From assembly GCA_039621445.1 (NCBI GenBank), contig CP154954.1:41967572-42031571 (forward strand): a stretch of DNA of 64,000 bases, in the 5' to 3' direction. The notes beneath the pieces were generated by a model. It had not been told where the DNA came from and searched no databases. It was given only the letters and a program-made list of their open reading frames with translations. Position numbers and translations under genes: made by a program. This document shows, piece after piece, positions 1 to 59,799 of the stretch; position 1 is the first letter of the stretch; the number at the start of each line of letters is the position of its first letter. Source of the stretch: Euglena gracilis. Taxonomy: Eukaryota.

Positions 1-3000
1 AGGCCCAGGCCAAGAAGGAGGCGGTAGAGCCGGCGGGGCGAGTTGGCCTGCTGGGCAGGCACCGACAGTTGACCAGCCCCGACCGTTGCCGACTACCCAG
101 AGAATGGCAACTGGAAAAAGTGACAAATTAATACGGATATATAGCGTAGTAATGACAATGATAATGATCCAACAAGAATTATAAAATAATAGCAATAGCA
201 ATGGCAAAGATAACAATGATATCAGTAATAATCAGAATAAATAACACCTGCAACTCGGAAGGCCGGCAAGTGCTATGAATGTCTATGGATGCTTCACCTC
301 CAGCAAAAACAGCTAAAATTGGCCAAACATGGCCAACTCCATCAAGAATACATGCTCAAAAATGCACGAAAATTGCCACACTGACCCAAAATAACCCTGA
401 GAAAAATTGAAGTGTGTTGTGTGGTCATGGTATATGATTATTATCACTGTATTATATTGTTTTCCATTCCCGTGCCCCCCCCCCCCGACAATTGACGTCC
501 CCGGGCAATTGACGCCCCCAGGCAATTGACGCCCCCGGGCAATTGTCACCCCTGGCTGTGCCAGCCAATTTGTCACCCCAGGAAATTTTCGCCCCCTTCC
601 GTGCTGCCCAATTTGTCACCCCCATTTGCAGTATTGCTCTGTGAACTTTCTTTTCGCCGCATGACTCGATTGATCTTCTACTTCGCTGCAACGCGCTGAG
701 AATTTTCGCATACCAAACGCTCTGCACAATATCACGACCATAGATTATTTTTCCTGCATTCACTTGTGTTTCAGATGGTGTTCTTGGTCATTTAGTTCAA
801 ATGTGGCTGACATTGGTGGGCAATTGACGCCCCCGGGCAATTAACGCCCCCGGGTAATTGTCATCCCTCTCTCTCTGTGCCGGCCAAATTGTCACCCCGG
901 GAATTTGTCACCCCCCTCCGTGCTGCCCAATTTGTCGCGCGACAATTGCCCCGGGGGGGGGGGGGCGGGTATGACTTATTTTTATTTTATTTTTATTTCT
1001 ATGACTTATTTTTTATTTTCTTTTACTGGCATGCACCCTAACTGCAGCCAAGTATTTGCCGGCCAGGGCCGACCACGCCGACCAGAGCACCAAAATGACA
1101 AGTGACCGTTGGTGCCTGCTGCTGGGGGCCCAGCGGTTCGCCAACACCCCGCAGACTGCCATCGGCTCCACCAGCGTGGCCTCCGAGGTGCCTCCAGTCC
1201 CCCCCCCCCCTGCTGTCTGCCCTTCTTCTTGTGATGATGCATTTTCTGCGGTATTTTCCGCATTTCTCAACCATTGAGCATTGTGCTCTTCTCAGGTTGG
1301 TGCTTTCTCAATTGGGGTATGATTTTGTTTATTTTCATTGTGTCAAAAATTCCAGATTCCCCCAGGTGCCACCGCTGGAAAATTGTGAAAACCACCGAGT
1401 GGAGTTCCAACACGTCACGGGCAGTTCAAAAACCTGGACATCAACCCTCCAAAGATAAAAATTGCGTCGGTGTGCACAAATATGCGCACCGACGCAATAC
1501 AGCTCCAGTGCGAGTTTGGCCGCATAAGTGGATGTTTTCCACTACCCCACAGAATCTCATTGGAATGAAATGGACTCTGCCCACGCAACTTCTGTCTCTG
1601 CATTGCCTCCATAGATTTTGGCTGGGAGTGATCTTTCACGGTCAAAAAAAAATGCATGAAATGACAACGATCAACGCCTTGCGGGCAAAAAAGAACAGAA
1701 CGCTGTCACGACATGCTGTCTGGCCTGCTGAACGAACTCGTCGACGTGTGAAACCATCGGGACTCACCCCCCCCTCCCCAAAGAGAGAAATTTACTAAAA
1801 GGACACAAAACTCCACTTTTACACCCCCCCCTTCCTGTGTGACAACTACCACCTGGTGGCGTTCTGGAGGTGGGGTGGCAGGTTTACCTCTTTGCTTGCT
1901 TTCTGAACCTATACTGCGGTGTGGAGGTTTTTGAAGTTGGTTACAAAAGGAGTGGATTTTCACATTCAACAAATGAAAAAATATAAAATAATAGGTTGAA
2001 ATGGGCTGTTAGAGAACTCTGCCGCTATTGGTTGATGAGGTGGGAACAAAGAACACAGGAGGATTGCTACCTGTCACCTGTTGAGTTCGGCGGCAAGTTG
2101 TTTTTCACTACCCACCTACCCACTGATGTTTAAGACTCTGTCACACCCACAAAGCAGCAAAAACAATGTCGGTGTGCGCAAGTGCGCACATGGACGATGT
2201 GTGCATTGCCCGCAACACCCATGTTTATAACCAGCCAAGACCCCTTACGTTGGCGTTTTTGGAGCTGGAAATTGAATGTGATGAAATTGTTGTATTTTTT
2301 TTATATTCTTATGGTGCTGGACCCAGCCCCAAGAGCATCGCCAGTATATTTGGGTGGTTGGTGTGCGCAAATGTGTAAATATACTGGCGATTCAAAAGGT
2401 TGATTTGTGCAAATGACTAAAACTCATTTTAATTTTGCTTGACCACAAGAGAAAAGTGAAAACAGGAGGAGAGTGTGAGGGGTGTTGTGTTCAAAGTGGA
2501 GGTTCTGTGTGATGTGTTTGAGAAGGTCAGATAAAGTGTGTTATTGTAAACCCTCCCCCAAATAATACCCCCCCCTCTCGGGGTCCGACTTCGGTCACCG
2601 AATTAATACCCCCCCCCCAATTTCGGGCCGAACCTGAAAAAGTTGGTAAAAATCACCATCTCTGATAATAAATCACAGAAAAAGGTTGATTTTTCTGATC
2701 ATCTGGTCTTCAAAAATGCTCAATTTCATGAGAAAGTGCAAAAATGACCCCAAAGGGGGGTTTTTGGGTGCTATTTTGGGTACCATGGGAGACTTCGAAA
2801 AATTTCGAAACTTTTGGGCAGCTATTACCCCCCCAATAATCATTTTGGCTAAAATGCTGGAGGGTAAAGGCACCTTTAAACTCAATTTTCAGGAGAAAAC
2901 CTCGAAGTGCCATTTATTTTGATGTTTCAGGGGTCAAAAAAAAAGGTTTTAACAGGCTCAACAGCTATGCCCAAATTCAGGCCAGAAGTCTGGTCTCTTT

Positions 3001-4720
3001 GTTGTATTTAAATATTTAAATGCTACAAAAATAAATTTGCATTTGCGGAGTTTCAAACTGCAGTGATGTGGAACCCTCTAAATGATATGTGTGTGACGTT
3101 GTACAAGTAATTGGTGCATGCCATAGACCCAGTTTGCGCCACGGTGTTATGTACCCGGGTGTTATGCCTGGACCTCCAAAAGGCGTAAACTGTCAGCTGC
3201 CCCCCCCCCCGTTTGCTTTGTTTGCTTCGTTTTTTTTTTATTTCGAGCTTTCTTTGCCTTTTTATGCCGAGGTCCATTCTGGCTCACCCCCTGTGCCTCC
3301 GCCATCGTCCTCTCAGGACCGCGTCGTGTTCCCGGTCTACTTCGCCCCCGAGATCGCCGTGCCCCCTCCCAGGGCCCGGCGGCGGGCCCGGGGTTGGGGA
3401 AGGGGGGGCGTGTTTGAGCCGTTAGGGTTGCCCGCCCTCCCTCTCCTCCCGCCTTGCCTCGCCCGGCCCTCCCGGCCCTGGCCCCGTGCCACATGTACTT
3501 CAGCCGGCGGTGGGTGGTGGGCAAAGTGGTGGACCAGGTCTGCGCCCAAGGTGTGCCTCGGCCTGCTCGACGTGGGGATTTGGGCCGCTGGGCCCGGGGG
3601 AGAGGGCATTCTCAGTTTTCGCGGATTTCGATGGCCATTTTTTACCGTGACGAATCTTTTGCAGTCATGCCTCCCAGAAAGGTATTGCCAATCCTGAACC
3701 TGCTGATCTTTCACGTAACAACCTGGAGGGATAGAGGGCAGTGGGTGAGTCACCGAAGTTGTCAATTGGTCACCTGGGTGCCAATGGTGGCCACATTGGT
3801 TTGCCATCTGTCAATTTTTTCACATTTGTCTCAACCTGTGTATCTCTCGCCAATGTATGTGTGCCTCTAGGAGTGAGGAATGAGTTTCCAGAGGTCATGG
3901 CAGCATGAAAAGGCAAACGACTGAAACCACATTCAATGGGAGTTGTATAATGCATTCAAGGAAAGAGTGTCATGCACAGGACACCACGGGGTTCTGGACC
4001 CCCCACATCCACCTGGAAATGTTTTGTATTCCCTCAACACCTTTGGGTTGGAGGATCACAAATGTGCGGTTACACCTGTTTTCGCTCCTGTAACCCCCCA
4101 AATAAACTAGTTGGGTCCTTGCCCCTGGCAAATAACTTGGCGGGGGGCAAGCCAAAATGATGGTTCCAGGAGTTGGGCGCCCTGCCAGGTCATTTGGGGG
4201 GGGGGGGGTTGTTTCATTTCAAGAGGAAGCTACCCAGAGAAAATAGAATGAGGCTTCTTTCTTTGCGCACTTTTGCAATCATTTGGACATAATTGTTGCC
4301 GCCGCTCTGTGCAGCCAAACTCAAGAACGAGAACAACCGCGTGCCAGAGGAGGAGCAGTACCGGCTGTTCAACCTGAAGTTCTGCGTGCCACTGCCGGGC
4401 AAGTGTGTCGCCCCCCCCCCCCATAGCCCCATCGGTCTGGGCTACCTTCCTTCTGCCTCTCACCTCCAACCCCCCCCCGGGCCAGTCCAGCCCCCCTCCC
4501 CCTGTAACCGCCAGCGGAACCCGGATGGCCTCGACCGGTCCGCCACAGTGCGACGCTTGCCTCGCTGGCGCCGGAGCTGCAGCCGGGGGACCCCCTCATG
4601 CTGGCCCGCGGCCTGGCCCTGCCCCCGGCGGTGGCGGAGGAGGTGCAGGCGGCGCTGGCCAAGGGCGGGCGGACTTCTGACGGGAAGCCCGGGCGGAAGG
4701 GCGACTGCACCGTGTGCTGA
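1..4720 (+). CDS. ZFAND1/Cuz1-like AN1 zinc-finger protein, 3' part (ubiquitin-like C-terminal domain, ends in CaaX-like CTVC); 5' end lies outside the window
   Basis: Exons <1-52, 1124-1187, 3317-3366, 3486-3550, 4315-4402, 4549-4720 join in frame: ...VGLLGAQRFANTPQTAIGSTSVASEDRVVFPVYFAPEIAVPPCHMYFSRRWVVGKVVDQVCAQAKLKNENNRVPEEEQYRLFNLKFCVPLPGNATLASLAPELQPGDPLMLAR...GDCTVC*. The motif MYFSRRWVVGKVVD...LKNENN resembles the ZFAND1 C-terminal domain (recognised from memory). Three GT-AG and two nonconventional introns. Confidence 0.8.
53..1123 (+). other. Nonconventional intron = TIR element 56-1118 plus one copy of an 8-bp TSD
   Basis: TIR caggcaccgacagt / accgttggtgcctg. The identical 8-mer CTGCTGGG occurs at 48-55 and 1119-1126. 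Removal leaves ...GRVGLLGAQRF... in frame. No GT/AG ends. Confidence 0.85.
488..955. repeat. Two arrays of ~19-bp subrepeats (gggcaattgacgccccc / aattgtcacccc), probably a nested MITE
   Basis: Arrays at ~488-630 and ~818-955, bracketed by a poly-C run on the left and a poly-G run on the right. Confidence 0.65.
3367..3485 (+). other. Nonconventional intron (119 nt)
   Basis: CAG at 3370-3372 (+4..+6) and CTG at 3478-3480 (-8..-6). The ends pair (ccagggcccgg / ccggccctgg). Removal restores the frame EIAVPP-CHMYF. Confidence 0.85.
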
Positions 4721-7809: not shown

Positions 7810-28894
<21,085 letters not shown>

Positions 28895-31800
28895 ATGTCT
28901 CGGCGCTGGCAAAATGCTCGCATTTCCCGCCCCCCCCCCATTTTTCAAGAAGGCCCCTCCCGAGTCGCTGGCCTGCGCTCAACTTGTGAAACGTCAGAGC
29001 CATTTGTGTTTCCCAACTCCTGGTCAACTCTCTCAACCATTCTTCGGATGCAACTCCTTGGAGGGTGCTGCGCCCTTGCTTTATTCGGCCACCATCTGCA
29101 TTTGTGACTTTTGATTTGAGCACGCACAATTGCCATCTTCAAAGTCAGTGAGGCACCGGCTGCTTCCTGAACAACAGTGTCACTTGACTGGCAACCACTC
29201 CCACTTCTCTGCTGCTCCTCATCGGGTGGGGGATGGTCCGGGAGGTGATATCAACAACAAAAATCAGCCGAAAAATCACCACAAACCACAAATTTTCCGA
29301 ACAATTCGTCCGATTTTTGCCAGTTCTCACCAAATCAGACCCTGGTCCGACTTTTCGAGGTACTTTTTTTATTATTTTTGTTTTCAGCCAACCCTGCCCC
29401 CCCCCCACCCAATCCATCATTTCATTTCCCAAAAGTATATTTTCCTCATGGGTGTTTTGTACCATGTGAAATTGGTGTGAAAAAAGGAACCTCAGAAGTT
29501 TCATTACTGTGCCTGGAAATAGCATTTCCAGTGAATTCTACCACCACTCACCTTCAGGGGGTCTTAAATATGGGCGGTGTTGTTGTTGCTGCTGCTGCTG
29601 CTGCTGTTGTTGTTATTGTTGTCGGATGGGGTGGGAGGGCTTATTATGGTTTGGTTTCGTAGAAACATTTGAAGGAACACGCCACCATCCCCTGTCGGGC
29701 GAAATGCCCGGGCTGCGGCTAGGCTGACCCGTGTCCCAAAGGCCATTCCCACCCACCCCTCACCCCAGGGTCGGCCCGCAGCGGTCCCTCGCGAGGGGTC
29801 ACTGTTGATGTGCGGGAGGACGCCGGTGGGTGGAGGTTTTCTTTTGGTGTCTGCATTGCTTCGCTGGTTGGTGTTCTGTCATTGGACCATGTCGCTGTTT
29901 TGCACTTCTGGCACCGGGGAATGGGGCACACCCAGGCTGGCCCTTTTCCGCCTTCTTCCCCTGACCTTCGCCTAACCACATGTAGTGCACCACGGCCTTG
30001 TAGTGTGCGGTGCGGAATTTCTCATCTCTCTGACGCCACCGGGGAGTTGCACACGCATCACTATTTCAGAAGGTATTCACATTTGATTTCAGGGTAGTCT
30101 GGTCAATGTTGTTGTTTTTTAAACCTCAGAGTTCTCACTCGATGCCCACCGCTTCCGGGGCGTCGCGCACCTTTTGTTCTCGTTTCATTCACCCCTCTGG
30201 GGAGAATTGGGTGTAGGGATGCGGAAGTGGGTGACTGGTTCCCGAAAAGTGAATGACTGGTTTTTTGAAAGTGGAAAGTGACCCCCCGGGATCGGTAATA
30301 ATGGTCTGGACCCCCCCCTCCCACCTCCTGAGGGCTACCTTGGTACCAAGAAAATCCTCCCTAGCACTTTGCACCAGGGAAGTTGCTTTGCACTAGGGAA
30401 CATGTGTTTTGCACCGTAAAACTCATGTTGTTATTATCTGCTTTGTCAATACGGGGGGAGAAAACTTGCGTGAAAATGCAGTGTGGGGCACTTTTTGAAG
30501 CCCCTCAAAAATCTTTCCATTTTTCGGCCACTTTTGGCCATTTTTTGCCAGTGTTTGTTGCTTCTGGCTCCTTCTTGCTGCTTTTCGCTGTCTTTGGCAA
30601 TTTTTTTGCTGCTTTGTCTTTGTCACTTTTAGCACCCTTTTTTCCCACCTTTGGCTATTTTTGACCACTATTGGCCTTTTTTGGCCACATTTGGCCATTT
30701 TGACCATTTTTGACCATTTTTTGCCATTTTTTGGGGATAAGCTCGAAAATCTCCCTTTCTCAGCAATCTCGAGGGGGGATTCCTCAAGAATCTCGATTTT
30801 CTCAGACCCCAGATCAAGACCCACCTTGATGCAAATAAGTGAGGGGAACGCATTTTTGACACCGGAAAAATTTTTTATCCCCCAATGTCTGCCCTGGACG
30901 ACCCCCTCCGGGGTGAGAGCACCCCCTGGGGGGTGGGAGCATCCCCTGGGCAGTGCTCCCTCCCCCCGTCTGAAAACATCCCTTGTCCCAACCATACCAT
31001 TGCTTAAGTTGTGTCTGACCCCCCCCCTTGGAGGCAACTGACTGGTTTTTGCAGTGTGGCTGACTGGTTTTTGGCTCCGGACCCCCCCGGGTTGGCCAGG
31101 AATGGCTGAAGGTGGCCACCTGGCACCGAAGGCACCAGGAAATTTTGGGGGGGGTTTGGCCAGAATCCATTGACAAAGTGAAAGTGAGATTGATTGGCTG
31201 GTTTTTGAAAGGAAAGTGACCCCCCCCCGTGGTTGGTAAGCAATGGCATGTTCCCACCCCCCCAGGGTCATCCATACATCATCCTCATTCATATGTCCCT
31301 GATGGGGGGGATGGAGGGATGGCTGGATTCCATTCAACGCATCCATTTCACATGTTTGTGAAGGTGAATGATGAAAGTTTCCGTCAATTGTGCCCATCCT
31401 TCATTCGATGCCACACTCCCTCTTCTTCTCTTTCTTCTCCGTCTGTGATGCACTTTTTCGTCCACGGTCATTGTAAATTATTCTGGTCCTTGAGTGGGGC
31501 TCTTAATTGCTTTTGCCCCCCTCCCCCGGAAAATAATCGGAATGGATGCCCCACAGGTTTTTCAATCACAAAATCGACACAAAACCTCGGTTTTTAAGGA
31601 GGAAGGGGCCCTCCCTCCCCCCTGGGTGCCGTGTCTAGGGAGGGCAGGCACTAAAAATTCCCTAAATATTCAACCTGAACCCAACCTGTCTTTGGCAACT
31701 GAGGGGAGGGTTTCGTACTCCCTCGAGGCAGACCGAGAAGGGAGGAAGGGACACCGAGGGCGAAGCACAAAGACATTGTGAGGCCATGCCTTGCTCGCCG

Positions 31801-32179
31801 GGGGTTTGTTGTGTGATTGTTCGCTGCGCTGGGTGAGGAGGTCCCGCTTAGTGCCGCCTCGCCGGAGTTGGCTGCATTGTCTCCGACGTGGCGACCATGG
31901 CGCTGTCTTTTCCCCTGGGGGGGTCCCCCCCCCTCTGCCCCCCCCTGGCCCCCATCTTCTGACCGAGGGCGTTTGAAGACAAATTTTCGTATGTGGGTGG
32001 GGGGGTCGGGCTCACAATGTCTTTGTGCTTCGCCCTCGGTGCCCCTTCCTCCCTTCTCGGTCTGCCTCGAGGGAGTGCGAAACACCTCGGGCTCCGCACT
32101 TTGCCATTGTGAGGCCAGATTGTGCACTGAAAAAAGGGGGGCCAGGGAAATCTCCAAAGAACCTTGGGCACCAAGTCTT

Positions 32180-33069: not shown

Positions 33070-35039
33070 GGTGGCATTTCTTCCCCCCTGCAATTGGTGA
33101 ACATACCCTTGTAAGGGGTGATTTTCAGGCAGGGGGACCCTGGTATTTTCATTTTTATTAACTGGGGGTGAATCCCAACGGGTAGAAATTTCCCAAAATC
33201 CCATGAATTAACATGTGGCTGAATCCCAGTAGGGGGTGACCATCAAAACTTTGGCTTGTGGAAACCTTCTTAATCTGGGGAGAAAATTTTGAATTACAGA
33301 CCAGGGGGGATTTGCATAAAGGCCCCCCATGTTGTCCAGTGGACATTGCAATGCATCCACTGCTGTGGCTTCCCATGGTGAGGCAAAAAGGTCTGTTTTC
33401 AGGCTTATGTAATTTTTGAACTGCTGCCTCAGCCATTGAAAAAGTTGGGGGTCTAGGGAATAATCCCCCCTGTCCATTTCCCACCTGCTTATGGGGTCTG
33501 CCAGGCATTCTTTTGAGGGGACCCACTTTACTTGCAGGTTTATGTTGTGTTCCATGCACCATTTGAAGAAGGGTCTTAGCATGGAATTGAAGGGGTCTTT
33601 TCTGCCCCCCCCTTTTGTTAAGTAATAGTAAATTACTTGATTGTCCACGGATAGGGACACAGTTTCCCCTGGCTGGCTGAGGCTTTGAACTGTGCTTATT
33701 GCTGCACCTAATTCTTTGACATTTATGTGCAGAATGGAGTTTTCCCTCCAAAATTCTTGCACAATTTTTCCTGTTCGAATGTCCAGCCCCCCCCCCCCCA
33801 GGCATGGGGCTGCTGTCTGAGTGCAACTCTCTGGTTGCACTTTGGGGGAAGGGTCTGCCCCCCCAGGTGTCCAGCAGGTTTTTTATTTCTCTTAATTGGT
33901 CCTTTATTCTTTGGAAGATGGGGTGTTTTGAGTCCCATGGGGCTGTGGAATTTTCCACTAAAAAATTTGCCAGGGCATCCGTAAAGGCCCTTAGAAAGGG
34001 CAGGGCCATGAGATTGCATCTGATTTGGCCCAAAATGGCAGCCAATTGCCTTTTTGACAAGTAATATTTTTTCACCATTTTTCCCAGCTCCTTTTTTACT
34101 GTTTTTATTTTCTGGGGGGGCACCTGTAATTTTCCCTCTTGGAAGTTTAGTTGAAATCCAAGATGATTTACGATTTGGGTGGGCTGCAGGGTGGACTTTT
34201 TTACATTGATTTTGTTTGAACCCTGATTTGATTAAATCCCTGACCACTGTGTTCAGGTGATTTTGTAAGATGATTTGTGTTGGGGCCACCAGCAAAATGT
34301 CGTCCAGGTAAATAAATACCTGGATGCCCCTTTTCCTCCACAGCTTTTCGAATGTTTTCATGACTGACATGAAAATTTGGGGCATTACATTCAGGCCAAA
34401 ACAGCCTGTCTGGAATTCCCAGGTCTGCCCCCCCACCTGATGCCTTAAAAATGGCCTTAGGCCTGGACTTACTGGAATATGAAAAAAGGCGTCTTTCAGG
34501 TCTATTTTGGCTGCCCAGTGGCCCTTTTCCAAAACTGGAAAAATGTGCTGGATGTGATCCAGCTTGAAAGGTTTCACTTGAAACTGCTGATTTAATTCTC
34601 TGCAGTCGCTGATCATTCTCCATTTGGTTGTTCCCCCTTCTGGTTTCGAAATTAGAAACCATGGGATTAAATGCTGGGTTTCTGAATCCCAAACTCGTTT
34701 TATTGACCCAGTTTTTTCGTAATCCAACAGGATTTTTTCTGCCTGGTTCAGGTCCAGGTTGGCTCTGGGTTTTGGGTGGGTGGACAATTTTGGTGGGCTG
34801 ACCCAGGGGGGTTGAATGCCATCCCTGATGAGTTGACATGTTGTTGGGGGGGCATTTTTTGTCCACCATTTTAGGCTGTTTTGCAGCCTTTGATGGAGGG
34901 GGGTGTCTCCCCATTTTTCCTCCATGGAATTTATTTCTTGGATCAGATGATTTTGGGGGGGCTGGGCTGGGGGTGTTGGACATTTTAGGCTTTTTTGCAA
35001 CCTTTGATGGAGGGGGGTGTCTCCCCCTCTTTCCCCCAT
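33070..35039 (-). pseudogene. Reverse transcriptase - RNase H - DNA N6-adenine methyltransferase-like polyprotein of DIRS copy A (frameshifted)
   Basis: RT: KIDLKDAFFH, CFGL..MPQIF, YLDD. RNase H: HSDSS, HINVKEL, VDN, WVPSKECLADPISR. MTase-like: DLFAS, YANPPW. Confidence 0.92.
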
Positions 35040-36209
35040 TTAATTTATTTTCTGGATAAGATGATTCTGGGGGGGCTGGGTTGGGGGTGTTGGACATTGC
35101 ACCCCTAGGTCCCCTAGGGCTTGGGCCCTTGGAAAAAGAAATTTTTTCTGGGGGGATGTGCATGCACTCTCTCCCTCTCTGCTCACCTCTCTGGATGATC
35201 TTGTTGTTGGAAGACATACCATAGGGCTTAATGCCCCTGTTTGGCCTGTCTGGTCTTCTCCAGGTTGACGTGGTTGGTTCACATACCATAGGGGGGCCTC
35301 TGTGGGTCCCCCCCTTGATTGAATCATTGGGAATTGAGGAATAATTGTTGGAGGGGTTCCTGCCCCTCCCTCCATAAGGGCCACTGTGGGTCCCTTTTCC
35401 TCCTGGGGCTGGGTCAATGAAAGGGCCACTGTGGGTCCCTTTTTCCCCCATTTTTGGCAGAGGGCCTCTGTGGGTCCCTCGGGGGATTTCTCCAGCAGCT
35501 GCCTTAGCTTCTTGGTGGCCACTGTGGGTCCACCCTGCTGGTGCTTTAGCTTCTTGGTGGCCACTGTGGGTCCACCCTGCTGGTCTCCAAGGTTTCCATG
35601 TATAAATTTTTTTCCATAATCCATCTTGTGGTCTTCCAGGCCTTGATTTCTTCTTGGCCTCCAACCCCATTGGAAATCTGGGGGGGCTGCTGTGGCCCCC
35701 CCTTGTCCCCTTGAGAGGGGCTGTTGTGATAGATGAATTGGGGGGGTTGGACAGACCTTTTCTGCCCCTTCCTGAGGGGATTTGCTTGAAAAACTGGCCC
35801 CCATGGCCCCTGTGGTGTTGACCTCCTTGGCCTTGATTCCATCTCCCCATCTTCTGGCCAATTTGTGCCCAGGCTGCTGGGCGCCTTTGGGGGAGATGCC
35901 CCTGATTTGTGGGCTTTGATTGGCCAAGCATTTTGCATTTGAAGCATTTTGGGCCCCCATGGCCCATTCTTTGCCCACAAAGGGCTGGTGCTGGCTTCTG
36001 TCTTCTTGGCCTTCTGGCCACTGTGGTCCAAGGACTGTGGCCGTCACTGGGGGGGGTTTTGGGCTGGGAAATTTCTGGGGTGGGGGGCTGGGTGGGAAGA
36101 ACGGCCACGGTTTGCCACGTGATGACCGCATCTCCAAGTTCTCCAGCTGCTGCGGCATCTGCTCCAGGACGTCCGCGGCCGTGAAATTCCAATTTCTTCT
36201 CAACTGCAC
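35040..36209 (-). CDS. Putative gag-like ORF1 of DIRS copy A
   Basis: 389-aa ORF upstream of pol, Pro/Gly/Gln-rich with GGPTVA repeats. Assigned by position only. Confidence 0.5.
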   Translation of the reverse strand: MQLRRNWNFTAADVLEQMPQQLENLEMRSSRGKPWPFFPPSPPPQKFPSPKPPPVTATVLGPQWPEGQEDRSQHQPFVGKEWAMGAQNASNAKCLANQSPQIRGISPKGAQQPGHKLARRWGDGIKAKEVNTTGAMGASFSSKSPQEGAEKVCPTPPIHLSQQPLSRGQGGATAAPPDFQWGWRPRRNQGLEDHKMDYGKKFIHGNLGDQQGGPTVATKKLKHQQGGPTVATKKLRQLLEKSPEGPTEALCQKWGKKGPTVALSLTQPQEEKGPTVALMEGGAGTPPTIIPQFPMIQSRGGPTEAPLWYVNQPRQPGEDQTGQTGALSPMVCLPTTRSSREVSREGESACTSPQKKFLFPRAQALGDLGVQCPTPPTQPPQNHLIQKIN

Positions 36210-36582
36210 TGTTCATTGAAGTCAAATTTGAAATTTGATAATTGACTTTTGATTTGATATTCGTCTGGTTCGTGTCCTTCTGGATATTGAAATGATATTG
36301 ACTTTTTTTCCCTTGGTTCTTCTTCGTTCGTGAACTCTTTTCCTTTCTTCTGGGTGTCGAAGGGCAATTTAGGAATCAGCCAACTCCGGCGAAAAAAGGC
36401 ACTAAGCGGGACCTCCTAACCCAGCGCAGCGAACAATCACACAACAAACCGCCGGCGAGCAAGGCATGGCCTCACAATGGCAAAGTGCGGAGCCCGAGGT
36501 GTCGGACAAAAAAAACAATGCCGGGAGGAGCAGGGCATTTGGCCGAAAGTGCGAAGGTGCCAGACACCTCGGGCTCCGCACG

Positions 36583-39500
36583 ACACCTCGGGCTCCGCAT
36601 TTTGCCCTTGTGAGGCCATGCCTTGCTCGCCGGCGGTGTTCTTTGGATTGTTCGGGTGCGCTGGGTTTGGAGGCCCCGCTTAGTGCCTTTTTCCGCCGGA
36701 GCTGGCTGATTCTTCATTTGCCCTTCGAAAACCCAGAAGAAAGGACCTTCAATTCAAGAACCTTGAAAAGTGAATTTGACAGAGTAAAGTCATCGAATTA
36801 TTCGGAAAGTGACGCTCGCCGAGAATATCAAATCAGAATTTGTTGGCATATTCCAGCCTTCAATGAAAAAAGGAAATTGCCAGCGTGAGGAAGAGCGTTG
36901 CTGAATAACAAGAACTGGCTGCCGCTACAGCTGGGCGACCTGACTTGCACCGTGGCGATCCCTGGCTGTCCCATCCCCCCAGAAAAACTTTCTGAAAACC
37001 CACCCAGTGACAGCCACAGACACAAAAGCCAAGACAGCTGTCATGCCACTACGGAAAGGGAGGCATGGAGGCCCGCAACCCAGGTACGCCAACACCTTGT
37101 TCAAGCTGGGCCATGGAGGTCGCAATAGCAATGGCCATGGTGGCCGATGGAACAAAGGCCGGGGTGACCAACAATACCAAGGCCAGGGAGGCCGCTTCCA
37201 CAAACAGATGCCCAGTGGCAGGGGCAGGACAGGTCCACAACACCCCCCCAACCATTTCTTCATCTCAAACCCTATCAGGAGTAAAGGATTGGCCCCCAGA
37301 GGCCCGCCAAGGTTTTCAATGGACATGGCGTCCCATATCAAAGAGAAGTCAATGGGGACTGTCAAATTTTTAAGAGGGCCAGTGGAGCCAACATCAAGAG
37401 GGCCAGTGGGGCCAGAATTATCATCAAGGCCCCAGTGGCCTTGATCATCTTTATTATCAAGGCCACTGGGGCCATCGGATATCAGAAGGGGGAAAACCCA
37501 GAAGCTAGAAGGCTGTCCCCCAGCAGGGGGTTTCAATGTACTGTGGCAGCCCCAGGAGGATGCCCCCAAAGGGGCAGTGGAGGACAAGGGGGCAACCCCC
37601 CATCAACTTTATTTGTCAATGCCCATGGCAGGGGCAAGCCAAAACAAGGGGGAGACCCAAAAAGTGGCCCCTATGGTATGTCAATCGACAACACCAATGA
37701 CAAAGTAGAAGATCAGAAAACCCGTGCGCAGAGCATGCACCCCCCCAGCCACCTTTAGAAAATGCTCAATCCCCAGGGGCACCAGGGGTGCAATGTACAA
37801 CAGCCCCCCAACCAGCCCCCAGCAAATCATCTAGTTCGGAAAATACATTCCATGGAGGAAAAATGGGGAGACACCTCCCTGTACCAGAGACTTCAAAAAA
37901 GTCTAAAATGGTGGACAAAAAATTCCCCCCTAGCAACATTTCAATTAATAATAATAAAAAATGGAATTAAACCCCCCTGTACAAATCCCCCAAAATTGTT
38001 CACCAACACAAAACCCAGAGCCAACCTGGACCTGAACCAGGCAGAAAAAATTCAGCTGGATTACGAAAAAAACTGGGTCGGTGAAACGAATTTGTGATTC
38101 AGAAACCCAGCATTTGATCCCATGGTTTTTAATTTCAAAACCAGAAGGGGGAACAACCAAACGGAGAACGATCAGCGACTGCAGAGAAATAAATCAGTAA
38201 TTTGAAGTAAAACCTTTCAAGCTGGATCATATCCAACACATTTTTCCAGTTTTGGAAAAGGGCCACTGGGCAGCAAAAAAAAACCTAAAGGATCTATTTG
38301 CATATTTCAGTAAGTCCAGGCCCAAGGCCTTTTTTGAGACATCAGGTGGGAGGGCAGACCTGGTAATTTCAAACAGAAACAGGCTGCTTTGGCCTAAATG
38401 TAATGCCCCAAATTTTCGTGTCAGTAATGAAAACTTTCGAAAAGCTGTGGAGAAAAAGGGGCACCCAGGTGTTTGACAACTGTGTTCAGGTGTTTTTGCA
38501 AAGGGTTTTGGGTGGGGGCCACCAGCAGAAGGTCGTCCAGGTAAACAAAGATCTGCTGGATTCTGGGTTCAAAATCAATGTGGAAAAGTCCGCCCTCCAG
38601 CCCACCCAAGTAACCCATCTGGGTTTTCAGCTGAACTTCCAGGAAGGAAAGCTACAGGTGCCCACAGCCACAGCAGTGTCCACAGCTCCATCCGATTCAA
38701 AAAATCCCATTTCACAGCAAATGAAAGCCATTTGAGAGAAATAAACGTTCTGCTGGACCCCTGGGGGGGAGACCCTTCCCCCAAAGTGCAACCAGAGAGT
38801 TTCACTCAGGCAGCAGCATCCATGCCTGGGGGGGGGGGGGCTGCACAGCCGCACAGGAGAAATTATGCAGGAATTTTGGAGAAAGGACTCCATTTTGCAC
38901 ATCAATGTAAAGGACCTCAGTGCAGCAATCAGCACTGTGAAAAGTTTAAGCAAACCTGGAGAAACCGTTTCTTTGTCAGTGGACAACCATGTGATTAAAG
39001 ATTTCTAAACAAAAGGAGGGGGCAGAAAGGACCCATTCAACAAAACGCTGAGACCATTTTTCAAACGGTGCATGGAAAAACAACTGAACCTCCAAGTCAA
39101 TTGGGTACCTTCAAAAGAATGCCTGGCAGACCCCATAGGCAGATGAGAAATGGACAGGGGGGGATTATTCTTTAGACCCCCAAATTTTTCAATGGCTAAG
39201 AAAGCAATTCAAAGGTTTCATAAATTTGGAAACAGACTGATTTGCATCCCCGGGCAACAAAAAACTGCCCAATTTGGTGGCCAGGTGGCCCCACTGGGAG
39301 GCTACAGCAGTAGACGCATTACAACGTCCACTGGACAACATGGGGGATCTTTATGCAAACCCTTCCTGGTCAATAATTCAACAATTTCTACCCAGGCTGA
39401 AAATGTTTCCCCAGAGCAAGAGTTTCGATGGTCACCCCCTACTGGGATTCAGCACATGGTGGCCCCAATTAATAAAAATGAAAGTTCCAGGGACCCCCTG

Positions 39501-40894
39501 CCTGAAAATCACCACCTACAGAGGCATGTTCACCAATTGCAGGGAGGGGGGGAACAAATGCCACCCCCCCCAGGTGGCCCCTGTTTTGCATGGTTTGCTC
39601 AGGCAAATTTTGAGGGGAAACAAATTCAGGTTCAGACCATTAACGATTTCCTGGGGAGAAACCCCAGTTTAAAACGCTATCGGAGTGCCTTTGCACTTCT
39701 GTGGGTAATTTTGGAGCACATCGGGGTATCTCCAATGAAGCCACCACAGACCAAGTGGCTGACGCTTTAATTCATTTTTCAGTTTCCCAAGGCCCAAGCC
39801 CGTAATGCCCACAGTGCTATGCTTTTGATTCCTGGGTGTGGTGGGCTACGCTGTTAACCCCCTACAAGAGGCTTTGGAACCAAAACATGGAGAAGTATGG
39901 GGCATTTTGGGATCCACTCCCAATCCTCCTGGGGCTTGCAAAGGCGCCTATGCCGAATGCTATTTGTACACTGCGTACACAACTGATTCTTTGCTCACGA
40001 ATCCTCTGTTTATACCGATCCTCAGACTTATCACAAGTCAAACGAACCACCAGTGTGTTGGGTAGGGCACCCTACATCAAGATTAAGCGTAAAGGACAAA
40101 AATTCCAAAGTGGGAAAGGGTTTGTCCATTCGCCAGTGTCCCCAGATAAGCCCATTTCATTTAATGATGTGCTATGTGGCTGCTACATGTTTATTCGTCA
40201 GCCGAGGGGGCCCCCCCCTAATTTCGTTAAAAACCCCCTTCAGGGCCATAAGTGCAGACACAATTGCTTCCATCACAAAAGACTTTTTGGCCAAGCAAGA
40301 GGTACCCCCCCAGGTGTGGGGGGCCCACTCCACCAGAGGAGCAGGGGTTGGTTTACTCAAAAAATTGGGCCTTTCTGCCCAAGAAGTTTTGTGAAATTGG
40401 TTAGTGGAGGGTGGTGGAGGCTTTTACAGCCCACTATCAAAGAGTTGGTGCTCAAGGCGCCCTGGAAAATGCCCTGGCCACCCTAATTTCAGTGCACGAG
40501 GGCAACGTCCGGAGCCCGAGGTGTCTTGTACTCCTTCGAGGAAAATACGACAAGGGAGGAAGGGACACCGAGGGCGAAGCACAAAGACCTTGTGAGCCCG
40601 ACCCCCCCCACCACCCGTAAACGAAAGTTTATTTTCAAAATCCCTTGGTCAGAGAGTGGGTACCATGGGGGGAGAGGGGGGGGGACACCCCCCAGTGGCA
40701 AGAAGCCACATCGCTCAGTCAGAGCAGCATCATCAGCCAACTCCGGCGAGGCGGCACTAAGCGGGACTTCCTAACCCGGCGCACCCAAACAATCCAAACA
40801 ACACCGCCGGCGAGCAAGGCATGGCCTCACAAGGTCTTTGTGCTTCGCCCTCGGTGTCCCCTCCTCCCTTGTCGTTTTTCCTCGAGGGAGTAGA
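36583..40894 (+). mobile_element. DIRS1-like retrotransposon, copy B (more decayed, opposite orientation to A)
   Basis: ITRs at ~36608-36708 and ~40734-40833, ICR at ~40495-40596. Fragmented pol (GHWAAKKNLKD, HINVKDL, YANPSW) and YR (LYRSSDL, AHSTRGAG, AFTAHY). Confidence 0.9.
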
Positions 40895-44400: not shown

Positions 44401-47400
44401 ATTACCTACCTAGTCGCCGACCACCCTCCACCCCACCAGTCTGCGCCATTGCGCAATGAGGGGAATACTCATTCTGGGGGGGGGGGGTTGGCAATTTGAT
44501 TTTGACTTTTCCGCTTTAATGCTGAGTTGGTTTTTGAAAAATTGCCTGGCATCCTTGCTGAAACCAAATTCTTTCAGCAGGGGAAATTGTGTGCCGGAAA
44601 TATTTCCGGCCCTGTTAGGGAGGGTTTCTTGTGCGAACCATAGGCTGTGTGGGGATTTTGGGGGGATCGTTGCCTGCGTTCATGGTGCTCGTGGGGCGAT
44701 TTCCTGAGAGCGGCCACTTGGAGGGGGAGGCCAGCAAACTGACTGTCCACTGAGAGAAACCTTTCACTGAGAAAAACCTACTGCTTTTTGAACAACCTCC
44801 AAAAAATTCTGTTTGATGGTATTCCATTGTACAACACTTCCTTTTTGGGGGGAGATGGTGATGCGATGTTTTCATTCATTCCAGGTTTGATTTCAGACTG
44901 GTGGCCACAATCAATGGCACTTGTCCCTATCAAAGTTTGGGATACTGGGGTGTTTGTATTTCACATTGAAGATACCTTTCATTTTGATTTAATTAATGTA
45001 ATTTTCATTAAATATTTCCTTTCATTTTTGTTCATATTATTTTAACAGAAAAAATGCGTGCGGTGTCAGCAGCAACAATGCAGCGACAACGACAACGGGC
45101 CTGGACCTTTGGGGCATGAATTCCTGAAAGTTGGCAACCAGGATGAATTCAAACAACCCAGGGGAGGGGGTCTCAGCCGTGAACCAAAAAAACCAAAAAA
45201 AAGCCAAAAATGGGCTTTTCTTGGCTTCTGGCAGACCCACCCGCCATCCACCAAGGCACCACGCAAAGAAAAATTCCTTCCAAAGGCGCCGAAGGAAAAC
45301 TTTGACCTAAAAATTGGCGCCTCCAAAAACACAGGAAGGGGTGGTGGAGGGTCGACCCCCACCCACCACACATGGTGTGGTGCCTTGGGCTCCGGAAAGG
45401 CCTTGGCCGAGTGCCCAAGCACTTTTGGCCATGTGCCCCTCAGAAAACCACTCAACTACCTTACCCATTGTTGGCCTCTCATCCATGGGGGAAAAAAACA
45501 GGGAACCAAACAGCCCCCCCCCCCAAAGGCCCATGTCATGTGGTGTTGCGTTGTGGATGCGGATCACTTGCCAAGGCCAGGCGGGCTGTTGGAATCAACC
45601 ACATTGGGGGGGGGGGGCAGCATCAACCCTTCCCCCATTTTGAACCCCTGGGCATGAAACGCCCGTTTGCTTGAGCGGTCGAAGGGGTGGGGTTGACAAA
45701 AGAACCGCCCTCGGGGCGGTTTTTGGGCATTGTGGCAAAAAAAACCAAATCCTGTCGCATATTTGGGGAGGGGGCGACCAATGCTCCGAAAATGCAATAA
45801 TCGATGAACTTTGGGCTCAGGTTTCAACCCACCAGACCACCTTCACCCCCTCTAAAAATGGCTGTCCCACAAGAACATAAACCCCCCTCCCAAATAACCC
45901 CCCTCCCAAATAACACCCCACCCAAATAACACACCCCCCTCGGGGGCCGATTTCGAGCGCCCAAATAACACACCCCCCTGTTTTCGTTTGGTTTTCCATG
46001 AAAAAAATAACACCTCCCAAATAACACCCCCCCCCCTGGGGGCCCATCAAAAGCCCCAGAGAATATGCTCGCAACGTGCACAAACACACACACACACACA
46101 CACACACCACCCACCCACCCACCCACCCACACACACACAACTGCATTGGCAATCCAAAAGCCCAGCCCTGGCCCAGATGGCTGTCAGCAGCTGGGGTCTA
46201 TCAATGTGGGCTGCATTGGCCCCAGCCAAAACCAAGGGGATATGTTGACCACAACAAGATAATTGTGGGGGTCATTCAATCGGAGGGGATTGGGGTTGGG
46301 GGTTCAATCCCAACAACGGTTTTTAAACTCTGCTCACACACTGGCGCTCTGACACTGCATCCACCCCACACCTTCGCCACTCACCCCATGGCCAGGCCAC
46401 CTGGGTGTTGCATGGTGCCGCTGTCGCCGCCATCAAAAAACAACGCAACTGCATCCATCTCCCCATGGCCAGCAGGTCTGGGGGCCACCCCCGCACATGG
46501 CTAACCTCTCGGCACTGCACTGGACCGGGGGGGGGGGGGCTTCACACGCACCCCTGCCACAGCAGTGCCGAGGGCAGCACGGACCGAATGCGGCGGAACG
46601 CAACGGTCCCTGTGAGAAAGCAACGCAAAGAATGCAATTCTGAAAGGTTCAAATATAAAATTCGTCAGGAGCTCCCAGAGGAACCCTGGGCTCCAGCATG
46701 AACCCCACTGAACCCCCCCCCCGCACTGGTGGGTGGGTGGGCCATCCCAAGGGTCTTGAAAGGCCTGGCTTTAAGCGGGAGGGAGCTGTTGTTTTCTATT
46801 GAAACGGGGGGGGGGGCGGCTAGGGGCAGGCACCCCATAGCACCTCATCCCTGACCCCCCCAGGGGGGGTCGGGGTTTTGGGGGTGCCTGCCCATGGACG
46901 CCCCCCCTCTCTGACCCCCGCACCGAAGGCACCGGGGGCCTGGAAAAGGCCATTTTCAATGAAAATTTTCTGGGTGTGCCTGCAGGCAGGCAGGCAGGCA
47001 GGCACCCTACAGCACCCCCCCCCCCCGGTGGGTTGAAAAAAGCCTGGGCCTGAGTATGGGTTTCGCGGCGAAGCTCCAAAAACGTTTTTGGGAAATGGCC
47101 TCAGACGCCCGATTTTTGTGGGGTCCCCCAGGGGGTCCAGCCCTGGTCTTGTGACTTAAAAAGAAGCCTGGCGGGACACTTTTCTGCTGGAGAGGACATA
47201 AAAACGTTGACCTCCTCTGAAAAATTACTACGCTTTGCGCGAGGTTGGTTTGCTGGATGTTTTTTGGAGGTTTGTTGGATGAACAAAAAAATGTCTACCA
47301 AAAAAATGCCACACCAAAACAAGATGCACATTTGCAAATTGCCATGGTTGGTTTACCCAATAAAAAATTATATCATTATTCAATACTGTAATTGTGTTGT

Positions 47401-50219
47401 ATGCACATGTTTGTCCAAAACACACTCCAAGGGAAATTCAGGGGGTAAGAGGGCCAAAAAAGTCTTATTTTGGGGGTAAACCGGTTGACATGAGGGGGAA
47501 AATGATTTCTGGTTTTGTTGCACCATCGTGAAGACTGCCAAACCCTCAAAAAATGGGTTCTGCAAATACGACCCCATTCGAAACCCAATTCAGCCTTTTG
47601 CCAGCCCTTGGGCAGGTGAGAGATCCCAAAGCAGAGGACCTTGATGAGAAAAAAAGGAAAAATCCAACCCACTCTGAACAACCCAATCCCATCTTATTCC
47701 TTTCAAATTATGGACCAGAGTGCACTGCCAACACATAATTCGGGATTCACATTCCAGAAGACCACCCCTCCAAAGACGGCATCGCCACACCTGCAACGCA
47801 ACCGTTCTTTGGTTGCAGGTGCTGCACCGGGAACGCCTGGAAGACCTTCCCAATTCCCAGGGGCTTGGCACCTTGCTGGCGAAAGAAGAGCATGTCCTGC
47901 CCCCAGGGCAGAACGGGAAGGCCTGGTGGGGGGGTCGACCTCCCCCACCCACCACAGCATTTTCACCGATTTCGGGAAAACGGGGATTTCGGCCAGAAAA
48001 AAAATTGAAAATCTTTTTGAAAAATGACCCCAAAACACATGATTGTTTGATGGAAAACCACATTTTTAATCACAAAAAATCTCAAAAAATTCAGGGTTAA
48101 AAATTGGTAAACCCCCCCAAATAACCCCCCGGTGTGTTATTTGCGCACCCGAACTGGGGCCCCAGGGGGGGGGGGTGTTATTTGGGGGTGTCATTTGGGG
48201 GGGGGGGTAGTTTTTAGGAGGGGATGAAAAAAACAAAGGTCAAAAAAAAGTGGACCAAATTCTGAAAAAACCTCTCAAAATCAAAATTTTGAGAAAATGT
48301 TGAATTTTTGGAAGTTGTGAAAAAATGGGGTTTTGGGTGGTTTTTGGGGGATGGGTCCCCAAAACCATCCCCCTATATGTCCAATATATGTCCTATATGG
48401 GTCCCAAAAATGGGTCACAAAAACACCCGGCGCCGAAAAAAATTTTTCGGGTCCAAAAATTGGTGCTATCGGAAATACAGGAAGAGGTGGTGGGGGGGGG
48501 GTTCGACCCCCCCCCCACCCACCACCCTGGCTGTTCGGCCGATCTGCCCTGCCTGCCCCTATTCCATCTCCGCCGCGTCACCTGGGAATGGGGGGATGGA
48601 TGTGGGAACACCCGCGACGGGATGAGGTTTTCCCCCCCGGTCCAGCCCGCTTTGCGGGTTTTGGCCCCAACGGAGTATTTCAGCGGATGCTGAGGGTGGG
48701 TCCACAGCCCGGTTGGGGGCTCCTGGCTGGAAATAATGCAGGCATGCTTGGCTGGACCCCCCCCCTTTGGGAAATGGAATGGAGGGGGCGAATGCGGGAA
48801 CCCGTGTGAACGGGGGATGGAGGGACACCACAACCAAAACCGCATGCAAATACGTGCAAATGACCCCCCCGCTCCATTGCCAACCATTCCTAACCTCTCA
48901 AAAAAGGAAATCGGCCATTTTGTTGAAATGCAGTTGCTGCTTGTGAATTCAGGGGTTGGGGGGTGCTCGCTCTAGCCACACAAAAAAAAACAATTGACTC
49001 TGGCCATTTTTTCTGAGAAATATTCTGTGCTCTGTGTCCTTCTCAGCCTGTTCTTGGTGCAGTCCCAATCCGCGGGGGGTCAATGGGGGCAGATCAGACC
49101 CCTCTGAACTTTTCCAGCATGCAACACCAGAAATTGGGGGGGGGGATAAAAATACCCAAAATCGTGTTTTCATGCAGATAATTTTGAAACCCGGTGAAAA
49201 ACATACACCAGAAAATTCATCTTCCCAACCAAATCCCAAATGAAACGGCGGAGAATTTTTTTTGGTGCCAAGGGGTGCTTCAATTTAAAAGTAGGGGGGG
49301 GGCAGCTAAACAGTGGGACGGTCCGGTTTGGGTGTAGATTTCGGCCCGGAGCAAAATGCTGGGCGGAAAACTTCTGCCCCCCCCAGCGGTCAAAAATAGG
49401 GAATTTTGGGCAAAAATTTGCTCTGTCAAAGAGCAGAAGGAAAGCTCTGAACATTTTGGGGCGGTCCAGCACCGGGGTCGGTCCACACCAGGAGTTTTTT
49501 AAAAGACCGGGGGTCCGCCCCACCCATCCAACCCCCCGCGAGGGGCACCTCAGGGGTCCAGGGGGACCCACCCACTCCCCCCCCCCAAATGGCCGATGAT
49601 CGCGAAAATGCTAAAATAGCACCTTTTTCAAGTATTATCCCCTGGGGGATTGGGAGGGGGGGGGCTCGGTCCCTCGCTTGGTCCAATACTAAAAAAAAAC
49701 CCTGGACATCTCCCCACACAAACCCCGAACACCCTCCTTATATCGAAACACCCCATATCAAGTGGGGACAAAAGGGGAGTCAAACCATAATCTCACGTGT
49801 GACCCCCCCCACCCGAGGGGAGACTGTTTCCCAGGTCCTGACCCAACCGCATTTTTCAAAAAAAACCCACGCCGCCGGACACCCCCCTTCAGAGCCTTCT
49901 GAGCCGCCCCACCCACCAAAAAGCACCGAAAATTGGTGGACCGGAACCCCACCCCTTGAACGGATGAAAAATGCTTAAAGCAAACCGCTTGTGAGAGGGA
50001 GCGCATCATTTCCCTTTTGGAGGAGGTGCCCCCATCTCTCCGCTGGGCCAACACAACTGCAGTGTGGCACACACCTCTGCTGCCACCTGCCACCACCGCC
50101 ACAGCCACCGCTTCTTGCCGCCGCAGCTGCCATCTGGTGACCTCTCAGTAAGCCTCGATACAGCAAAACACTGAACCTCTCCATCCATGTGTTTGTGTGT
50201 GCTTCCGTGTCTGGGGTGG

Positions 50220-53200: not shown

Positions 53201-53410
53201 TCGTGTTCATCCAAGGCGGGTTTGTGGGTTGGATTGCGAAACCATTCGCACCACCAAAAAAACAAGTGGCCAGGCAGACCGCCACGCTGGCACTGGCCTC
53301 CTTCCCGCACGCACTGCCGGCCCGCCGCGCCGTCCCGGTGCTCCGTCGGCGGCGAAGTCTGGTCTGGGCCGCCAGCATCCCGGGACGTCCTCACCCTGCA
53401 CACCAATGAG
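50220..53410. repeat. Local direct duplication of ~1.07 kb (50220-51290 and 52337-53410)
   Basis: The two copies are near-identical and give matching ORF translations. 49995-50140 also resembles 51905-52050. Confidence 0.92.
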
Positions 53411-53917
53411 AGGGGGGGGGATTGGGGGAGGGAGGGGGGGGGGCGGTGAGCGTCCTGGGGTGTCTCGTCCGCTGCCCAGAAAAAAAAAAAAAAAAAAGAC
53501 CAACCCTACCATAAAATAAATTAAAATAAAATAAAACAAAATAGAAAAAAAGAAAGCCACTGGCTGGCTGCCCTTGACGGGGTTCCAGGCAGGCTTCTGC
53601 TGATGGCGTCTTGTGGAGACACCGGAGAAAGCAACCATCTAGAGCTAAACCCTCCCCCTGTGGGGGGTCCGGTCCAGGGGTATCTCCGACTGGAAAATAT
53701 CAAAACAATACCATTCAAAAATCCCTGATATTGATTTGAAAATATACAAAACTGTATCCTTCACTTATTCTGCAACAGGAAATCCCCAAAGCCCCTCCTC
53801 AGAGAGCACGACAAAAAACAAACAGCAGAGCTCTTTGACAATGACAAAAAAATACAAAAGCTACCAAAGCGATTGGGGGCACATTTCTCTGTGTGTTCCA
53901 CGCCCATGGGTGAATGC

Positions 53918-59300: not shown

Positions 59301-59443
59301 CAGTCCTCCGACAGCAAAAAAGTGAACCCAGCAATGGGGCTGGCTAACTGGAATTCCCCCCCCCGCCCTCCTAATGAAATTAGAGCCCTTGACAGCATAA
59401 CAGCATTGCCACACCTCGGAGAAGAACCGTCCTTTGGGTGCGG

Positions 59444-59799
59444 CAGGAATGTATGGGAAGCCGAGGGGGAGTCCAACCCCCCCCCCCTCCGAACACGGGA
59501 GGGGGAGGGTCGTACCCCGCCTGCGACTGCGAAATGCAAATGCTCGGAAAATTTTCCATCATATGGACTGTCATTGGCTGGATGACAAACCAAAACTGTT
59601 CAAAAACACTGTTTGGTTCTTCTTTAAAATAAACACAAAAAATGCTCATTTGAATCCATTTTTTTTTTCATGCGGAAAACATCAAAGCATTGACAATGTG
59701 CAATGTCCTGAAAAATGAGGGTGGGAAGCAAATTTTTGCATGCTGGCAGAAAACTGTTCGATATTTTTGGAACCAAGGGGGGCTTCCCATACATCCCTG
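59444..59799. mobile_element. hAT-like MITE with perfect 8-bp TSD; candidate nonconventional intron on the minus strand
   Basis: 19-bp TIR caggaatgtatgggaagcc / ggcttcccatacatccctg. TSD gggtgcgg at 59436-43 and 59800-07. Confidence 0.85.

Follow-up and report, generated by a model that had tools for sequence, protein, structure and literature searches.

A nonconventional intron of Euglena gracilis with the ends and the flanking 8-bp duplication of a transposon-like element

The window, as the whole stretch of 64,000 nucleotides (64 kb) analysed here is called, belongs to contig CP154954.1 of Euglena gracilis and contains, at its beginning, the 3′ part of a ZFAND1-like gene whose reading frame is interrupted by an insert of 1063 nt (E1), followed by a gene coding for a protein kinase. 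A search with the last exon of the first gene led to protein P0001 (eukprot EG_transcript_17535), a transcript-derived sequence of 310 aa from Euglena gracilis in which the Pfam domains zf-AN1, zf-C2H2_ZFAND2, and UBL_ZFAND1 were detected; thus, the ZFAND1-like label that an earlier note on this DNA had given to the gene is right. The insert interrupts the linker that joins the second AN1 finger to the ubiquitin-like domain. When positions 53–1123 are removed together with four more introns (1188–3316, 3551–4314, and 4403–4548, all of them GT-AG, and the nonconventional intron 3367–3485), a coding sequence (CDS) open to its stop codon is obtained, with 159 of its 162 residues identical to residues 149–310 of P0001 and no indel. 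The kinase gene (positions 7810–20115, forward strand) matches EG_transcript_8566 (P0003), the spliced CDS being identical at 549 of 549 residues, from which it follows that the window is nuclear DNA of Euglena gracilis. Its 15 exons are separated by 14 introns, eight of the GT-AG type and six nonconventional. No convincing further genes were found beyond 20 kb of the window by an exon finder based on codon usage.

E1 is bordered on both sides by the 8-bp sequence CTGCTGGG in exact direct repeat, and immediately inside these copies its own ends, CAGGCACC and GGTGCCTG, form a perfect 8/8 inverted repeat that extends to 13 paired positions out of 15 along the arms 55–69 and 1105–1119. This arrangement at 48–1126, already described in the earlier note, is present in the letters as stated there. 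The insert has a GC content of 0.47, and five of its six copies of the motif CCGAC lie at ~50 nt or less from the element ends. Together with one copy of the repeat, it amounts to 1071 nt, that is, 3 × 357; if it were retained, frame 3 would meet a stop codon around 25 codons inside. No transposase open reading frame (ORF) was found in E1, the longest ORF having at most 111 codons, and no Pfam family was recognized in the largest one; E1 is therefore non-autonomous. In addition, the AT-rich E1 contains a GC-rich inner block (465–973), bounded by runs of C12 and G13 and by a 21-nt inverted repeat (465–485, 953–973), within which tandem repeats of 17 bp, GGGCAATTGACGCCCCC, were found in two sets, at 481–545 and 818–860. 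This block may be a nested insertion, and no flanking duplication was seen around 465–973.

The insert is absent from P0001, which is evidence at the protein level and possibly from another allele. This protein reads ...AGRVGLLGAQRFANTP... (in a longer stretch, ...AQAKKEAVEPAGRVGLLGAQRFANTPQ...) with one LLG only, and these residues (L164-L165-G166), present once in the protein, are encoded twice in the DNA (48–56 and 1119–1127). Consequently, the messenger from which P0001 derives was without exactly 1071 nt, corresponding to the element and one copy of the repeat. GT-AG splicing from a donor at position 24 to an acceptor at 1066 or 1133, which the earlier note had named as the outcome that would speak against its proposal, is excluded by the presence in P0001 of the residues encoded by 25–55 and 1127–1133.

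The 8-nt direct repeat allows the intron to slide by −5/+3, resulting in nine equivalent positions (starts 48–56), and GT-AG or GC-AG ends were found at none of them (0/9), in agreement with the interruption of a ZFAND1-like frame without GT-AG ends that had been noted before. In one of these positions, 53–1123, the sequence reads GGG-CAG...CTG-CTGCT/G (the slash marks the exon boundary), and thus fits N3-CAG...CTG-N5/R, including the CAG at +4 to +6 and the CTG at −8 to −6 that the earlier note had pointed out as the nonconventional pattern. From knock-ins in a gene of E. gracilis, Nomura et al. 2025 described the signature 5′-N3-CDG...CH′G-N5-6/R (PMC12501133), with a donor spacer of strictly 3 nt, an acceptor spacer of 5 nt in which 6 nt are tolerated, a purine opening the downstream exon, and pairing needed behind CAG and before CTG. 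As described there, the exon end at the donor side had no base requirement, and fully synthetic introns of 50 bp that follow the code get spliced (PMC12501133). Every item of this code is present in E1, namely the spacers, the purine (G at 1124), and the pairing. Concerning the latter, the 40-nt ends of E1, paired as a duplex, reach a calculated −29.5 kcal/mol compared with −21.5 ± 4.2 for 500 shuffles, although, taking into account the fold of the whole region (see below), folding gives only moderate support to the pairing of the ends. Nonconventional introns are reported to be excised as circular RNA after the conventional ones (PMC12501133, PMC11282704), and they make up 71.8% of the introns of E. 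agilis (PMC12501133).

We consider it quite probable that the sequence 56–1118 is a non-autonomous cut-and-paste transposon that is spliced out as a nonconventional intron. According to this proposal, an element similar to a MITE (a miniature transposable element with inverted repeats) would have entered the ZFAND1-like gene in the exon that codes for the linker, presumably by the action of a transposase, with duplication of the 8-bp target CTGCTGGG. With its CAG...CTG tips, with the paired bases that lie behind these, and with G at 1124, it would satisfy N3-CAG...CTG-N5/R, so that cutting of the pre-mRNA would take place 3 nt ahead of its first base and 5 nt beyond its last one. Since these 3 + 5 nt add up to the length of the duplication, one duplication copy, neither more nor less, would be removed along with the element, and the frame that existed before the insertion would be restored. 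The empty site would be expected to read ...GGCCTGCTGGGGGCC..., with a single clean 8-mer.

Across the window, a scan for CAG...CTG pairs 30–4000 nt apart with terminal complementarity of at least 8/10 yielded 1686 pairs (1688 when the edge rule was loosened). An exact abutting 8-bp direct repeat was found in six of these pairs, which correspond to four independent loci (E1, E2, E4, and E5, Table 1), one duplicate of E5, and one artefact (E3), compared with 0, 0, 1, 0, 0, 0, and 0 exact matches in seven shifted controls. For repeat lengths from n = 4 to n = 10, the exact abutting repeats numbered 10, 1, 1, 1, 5, 0, and 0 (E1 being left out by the edge rule), compared with 5.0, 1.5, 0.7, 0.14, 0.06, 0.02, and 0.0 in far-shift controls (50). 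Of these lengths, only 8 bp is enriched beside CAG...CTG ends in the window. No excess was observed at 7/8 identity (3 cases, with 0–4 in the shifted controls), and a general scan for any terminal inverted repeat (TIR) beside any repeat of 6–10 bp, swamped by low-complexity and tandem sequence, gave 7 cases compared with 8–12 in the controls. Finally, when all 64 three-base tips were compared, 51 were found without any exact 8-bp repeat, and the non-CAG tips that had them corresponded mostly to poly-G/C, A/T-rich, or tandem-repeat sequence.

The second copy of E5 (60484–60937) has the same flanks as the first and is thus a segmental duplicate, both representing a single event. E3 (31729–32064, with the apparent duplication CCTCGAGG) was discarded: its 8-mer is palindromic within a longer inverted repeat, and a second copy at 40548–40874 aligns through the 8-mer. 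Counting also E6, with flanks that match at 7/8, the five elements (E1, E2, E4, E5, and E6) have unrelated interiors and sizes from 332 to 1698 nt, having in common the CAGG tip and the 8-bp duplication. TIRs directly flanked by a duplication of fixed length, the hallmark of cut-and-paste elements and MITEs, were found in E1 and in three independent loci. As both E2 and E6 sit inside GT-AG introns, their duplications are not by-products of splicing, and the two elements are ordinary transposon insertions of the class of E1, which is not found only as introns. No Pfam family was detected in the largest ORF of E2, in an ORF that overlaps E4 in its 5′ part, or in another that overlaps E5 in its 3′ part.

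Table 1. Coordinates of E1, its host gene, and the other TIR elements in the window.
Feature	Positions	Strand	Basis
End of upstream exon of the ZFAND1-like gene (P0001 residues 149 to ~165); gene start outside the window	3–52	+	tblastn of P0001, spliced CDS
Left copy of the 8-bp repeat CTGCTGGG, read as target-site duplication	48–55	+	
Nonconventional intron placed as the published code requires, 1071 nt, one of 9 equivalent positions	53–1123	+	
E1, 1063-bp non-autonomous TIR element; CCGAC clustered at both ends, GC-rich inner block	56–1118	+	
5′ TIR of E1, CAGGCACC; CAG = intron motif +4 to +6	56–63	+	
3′ TIR of E1, GGTGCCTG; CTG = intron motif −8 to −6	1111–1118	+	
Right copy of the 8-bp repeat CTGCTGGG	1119–1126	+	
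Exon GAQRFANTPQTAIGSTSVASE, followed by GT-AG intron 1188–3316	1124–1187	+	
Second nonconventional intron of the ZFAND1-like gene, TCC-CAGGGCC...GGCCCTG-GCCCC; flank 8-mers match at 4/8	3367–3485	+	
E6, 332 bp, TIR CAGGGTATT, flanks TCTTTGAC/TCTCTGAC (7/8); inside kinase GT-AG intron 7	13043–13374	+	
E2, 1698 bp, AT-rich, TIR CAGGCAC[T/C]TATAG, exact duplication GTCCTGTG; inside kinase GT-AG intron 14	18219–19916	+	
E4, 648 bp, TIR CAGGGCAGA, exact duplication CCTGCCCC; parts of the interior recur in the window	47904–48551	+	
E5, 356 bp, MITE-like, 19-bp TIR (one mismatch), exact duplication GGGTGCGG	59444–59799	+	

The 3- and 5-nt spacing of the code may reflect the 8-bp duplication in general, and not only at this locus. 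In a duplication split 5/3 by the two cuts, position 5 would be the last base of both the upstream exon and the intron, position 6 would be the first base of both the intron and the downstream exon, and position 8 would correspond to +3 of the intron and to +3 of the downstream exon. In the consensus reported by Milanowski et al. 2014, a pyrimidine (Y) ends the upstream exon and the intron, a purine (R) opens the intron and the downstream exon, and C is found at +3 of the downstream exon (PMC3935182), whereas a survey of E. gracilis introns reports CCAGG at +3 to +7, which places C at intron +3 (PMC11170887). The three positions that are conserved in the flanks (Y/Y, R/R, and C/C) all pair as the 5/3 model predicts. 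The pyrimidine at the end of the upstream exon would be better read as a passive copy or as a target preference, since the knock-ins gave that exon end no base requirement. Furthermore, the maximum reported for the tubB intron of Lepocinclis, "as many as nine positions" (PMC3935182), agrees with a ceiling of 8 bp. We are therefore slightly inclined to think that the code is matched to one transposon class, its strict 3- and 5-nt spacers adding up to the 8-bp duplication of CAG-tipped hAT-like elements, in which case most euglenid nonconventional introns would be decayed insertions and E1 a young one. As regards the 3 + 5 = 8 explanation put forward in the earlier note, its spacers are experimentally defined and 8 bp is the sole length enriched in the window, whereas its link to the code in general is one that we infer.

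Eight nonconventional introns were mapped in the two genes, and six of them fit the code: introns 1 and 3 of the ZFAND1-like gene, introns 9, 10, and 13 of the kinase gene, and kinase intron 12, the latter with CGG/CCG. The junction repeats of the seven introns other than that of E1 are 0–4 nt long, and the 8-mers flanking the five older code-fitting introns are identical in register at 4, 5, 4, 4, and 7 of 8 positions. The older introns of this window neither support nor contradict the model. The tip CAGGGCC is common to four short nonconventional introns of the two genes (5′ tips at 3370, 15218, 15659, and 17405), two of which also have the 3′ tip GGCCCTG in common (3480 and 17624). These CAGGGCC...GGCCCTG tips are all that the code-fitting introns of the window have in common, and they may represent one MITE family or else a preferred stem of the splicing code. 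In addition, the GT-AG intron 11 of the kinase gene (15925–16968) presents a 6-nt junction repeat, GTGCAG, with seven equivalent positions, and a (CAA)35 microsatellite at 16768–16872.

Several observations weigh against E1 being a transposon removed as an intron, or against extending this origin to other introns. No second copy of E1 was found within the 64-kb window, a weak negative as far as multi-copy status is concerned, and two scans of metagenome contigs for exact patterns, namely a 20-mer of its 5′ end and an internal 25-mer, gave 0 matches. The other copies with different target-site duplications that the earlier note suggested looking for were thus found neither in the window nor in these scans, and its expression "intact transposon" overstates an element with no transposase ORF and no second copy in 64 kb. 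Nor was a transposase seen anywhere in the window, either by inspection of the ORF list or by a Pfam scan of nine proteins. In the fold of 33–1146, the terminal stem (55–66 with 1108–1119) has an ensemble probability of ~0.2 and is absent from the minimum free energy structure. Introns 4 (10324–11234) and 6 (11753–12106) of the kinase gene show neither the known code nor the pattern of TIR and duplication, and the summed flank identity of the five older introns, 24/40 at shift 0, is equalled at shift +1 (24/40), a consequence of the abundance of C in the flanks. Finally, 3 of 162 residues differ between P0001 and the exons of the window (P180S, A201V, and D277A), in contrast to the 549/549 identity of the kinase, so the ZFAND1-like transcript may have originated from a different allele or from a paralogue, possibly one without the insert. 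The splicing of the copy present in the window is suggested by its compliance with the code and by its intact exons. A messenger as it was before the insertion, the outcome proposed in the earlier note, is what P0001 shows, with its single repeat copy and no element, and its restoration by splicing is probable for the copy in the window.

These last differences, along with the identity of the neighbouring kinase to its transcript, would also be expected if this copy were a disrupted, unspliced allele or paralogue, the uninterrupted transcript being produced from a gene copy free of the insert. However, all six exons are open to the stop codon and all the splice sites are intact, the insert has all that is required by a code which suffices for synthetic introns to be spliced in E. 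gracilis (PMC12501133), and the element plus one repeat makes up the 1071 nt that P0001 is exactly without, so we regard such a disrupted copy as quite unlikely. An origin of the insert by capture during the repair of a double-strand break, with the 8-bp repeat as microhomology or fill-in, has a precedent in the recently gained intron 4 of gapC from E. agilis ACOI 323, which is comparable to E1, by its description, in being nonconventional and in having 8-nt direct repeats at its junctions, longer than those of every other intron of that study (PMC4770533). Unlike in our interpretation of E1, those repeats were taken by Milanowski et al. 2016 as the footprint of repair (PMC4770533). Nevertheless, repair would not be expected to leave inverted tips directly beside the repeat, nor one fixed repeat length at unrelated elements, with only n = 8 and only CAG...CTG tips involved and copies in non-coding DNA among them, and we find it very improbable for E1.

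A different objection concerns the general model and not the locus. The paired Y/R (and C) consensus could result from a symmetric cutting enzyme that reads both sites alike, the sum 3 + 5 = 8 being then a coincidence. The functional preference for a purine at the start of the downstream exon (PMC12501133) is in line with such an enzyme, as are the older introns of the window, in which flank identity is not specific to the register. However, the exon end at the donor side is free in the knock-ins (PMC12501133) and yet has a conserved pyrimidine like its partner (PMC3935182), and exact 8-bp repeats are also present at elements in non-coding DNA; coincidence thus seems to us unlikely. The mechanism could also be the one proposed here with elements that belong to Merlin, or to another superfamily that makes 8-bp duplications, and not to hAT. 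The draft genome of E. gracilis is reported to contain two Merlin families, whose TIRs are near-perfect and whose target duplications are 8 bp long (PMC8101967); the 8 or 9 bp that Merlin duplicates (PMC8101967) would also be compatible with the acceptor spacer N5-6, in which 6 nt are tolerated; the ORFs of the window showed no hAT transposase; and the tip CAGGC of E1 and E2 misses the fifth base of the hAT YARNG. In contrast, the TIRs of Merlin are described as having a conserved terminal 5′-GG-3′ (PMC8101967), whereas all five elements start with CAG right after the duplication, and starts with CAGGG, to be compared with the CAGGGG... listed for hAT (PMC3014272), are found in E4, in E6, at the 3′ end of E5, and in four introns. 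We give this variant a small but appreciable chance of being correct.

The assignment to hAT, suggested in the earlier note, relies on a resemblance in the 8-bp duplication and in the CAG tip, and no transposase or autonomous partner accompanies it among the ORFs of the window. The tips of the five elements are CAGGG in the cases detailed above, CAGGC in both E1 and E2, and, at the 5′ end of E5, CAGGA; the exact 8-bp duplication that hAT elements make is seen at E1, E2, E4, and E5. The target consensus of hAT is of the nTnnnnAn type, and no pattern of this type appears in the duplications of the five elements. On balance, hAT is favoured about twice as strongly as the other superfamilies that make 8-bp duplications, a reasonable lead and not a finding. 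Non-autonomous hAT elements share with those described here the 8-bp duplications and short YARNG TIRs, often starting with CAG (listed examples are CAGGGG... and CAGTG..., PMC3014272), from which the CAGGC of E1 and E2 differs.

Some other features of the window complete its description. The sequence CAGGCACC occurs 15 times, compared with 3.9 expected, and many of these matches are supplied by a repeat family found in opposite orientations at 46800–47050 and 62800–63050 and rich in palindromes of the type GGGGTGCCTGCCCCTAGCAGGCACC. Two inverted copies of a retrotransposon (33161–36375, reverse strand, and 38477–40483, forward strand), one ORF of which matches RVT_1 with an E value of 4.6e-19, show stretches recognized by eye as RNase H-like and DIRS-like, and adjoin the long inverted repeat 31729–32064/40548–40874. 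Tandem segmental duplications were observed at 50000–53500 (~2.1 kb) and at 59400–61300 (~1.1 kb), the latter with E5 in both units. Nothing was detected in the window by Rfam, at gathering thresholds, or by ARAGORN.

Compared with known systems, E1 resembles the euglenid nonconventional introns described by Milanowski et al. 2014 and 2016 and Nomura et al. 2025 in having no GT-AG ends, in the positions of CAG and CTG, in its pairable ends, in the junction repeats that blur its position, and in the purine that opens the downstream exon. It differs from most of them, which have shorter repeats, in that its repeat is complete (8/8) and lies immediately beside an 8-bp inverted repeat free of mismatches, so the boundaries of the element can be directly read; E1 is an unusually well-preserved transposon-like nonconventional intron. 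The introners of Micromonas, Aureococcus, and dinoflagellates, a class defined by its multiple copies, are also exonic elements with TIRs that are spliced out with the duplicated target, restoring the mRNA (PMC11282704). However, they use the GT-AG spliceosome and sites defined by sequence, whereas in Euglena the cuts are measured from a base-paired CAG/CTG stem.

A MITE-like origin of these introns, with the CAG/CTG ends as TIRs and "TSD-like" (target-site-duplication-like) junction repeats, is already in print (Milanowski 2014, 2016; PMC11282704; PMC12501133; and a paper on diplonemids). In contrast, within the openly searchable literature, subscription papers, figures, and supplements being outside of it, we did not find the 3 + 5 spacers tied to an 8-bp duplication or to hAT, 8 bp given as the fixed duplication of the CAG-tipped elements of Euglena, or the junction consensus explained as two copies of the target. 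The distribution of repeat lengths may already be contained in Fig. 1B or the SI of PMC12501133, or in the supplementary tables of Milanowski.

The origin of the nonconventional introns of euglenids and the mechanism of their removal have been open questions since the 1990s. Earlier proposals of a MITE origin were based only on inverted ends and short "TSD-like" repeats, whereas the locus of E1 presents the full signature of an insertion, and this element and its neighbours indicate one fixed duplication of 8 bp, the length obtained by adding both experimentally defined spacers. At the scale of the genome, the model predicts an excess of flank identity with a ceiling at 8, a position-wise correlation between both junctions, sister copies outside genes, and a transposase associated with CAGG tips. 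If the model is true, the paired preferences Y/Y, R/R, and C/C would be the two copies of positions 5, 6, and 8 of the duplication, and any such element inserted in any exon would be removed with one duplication copy, independently of GT-AG sites and of the target, which would explain how insertions of this kind in exons are tolerated by Euglena.

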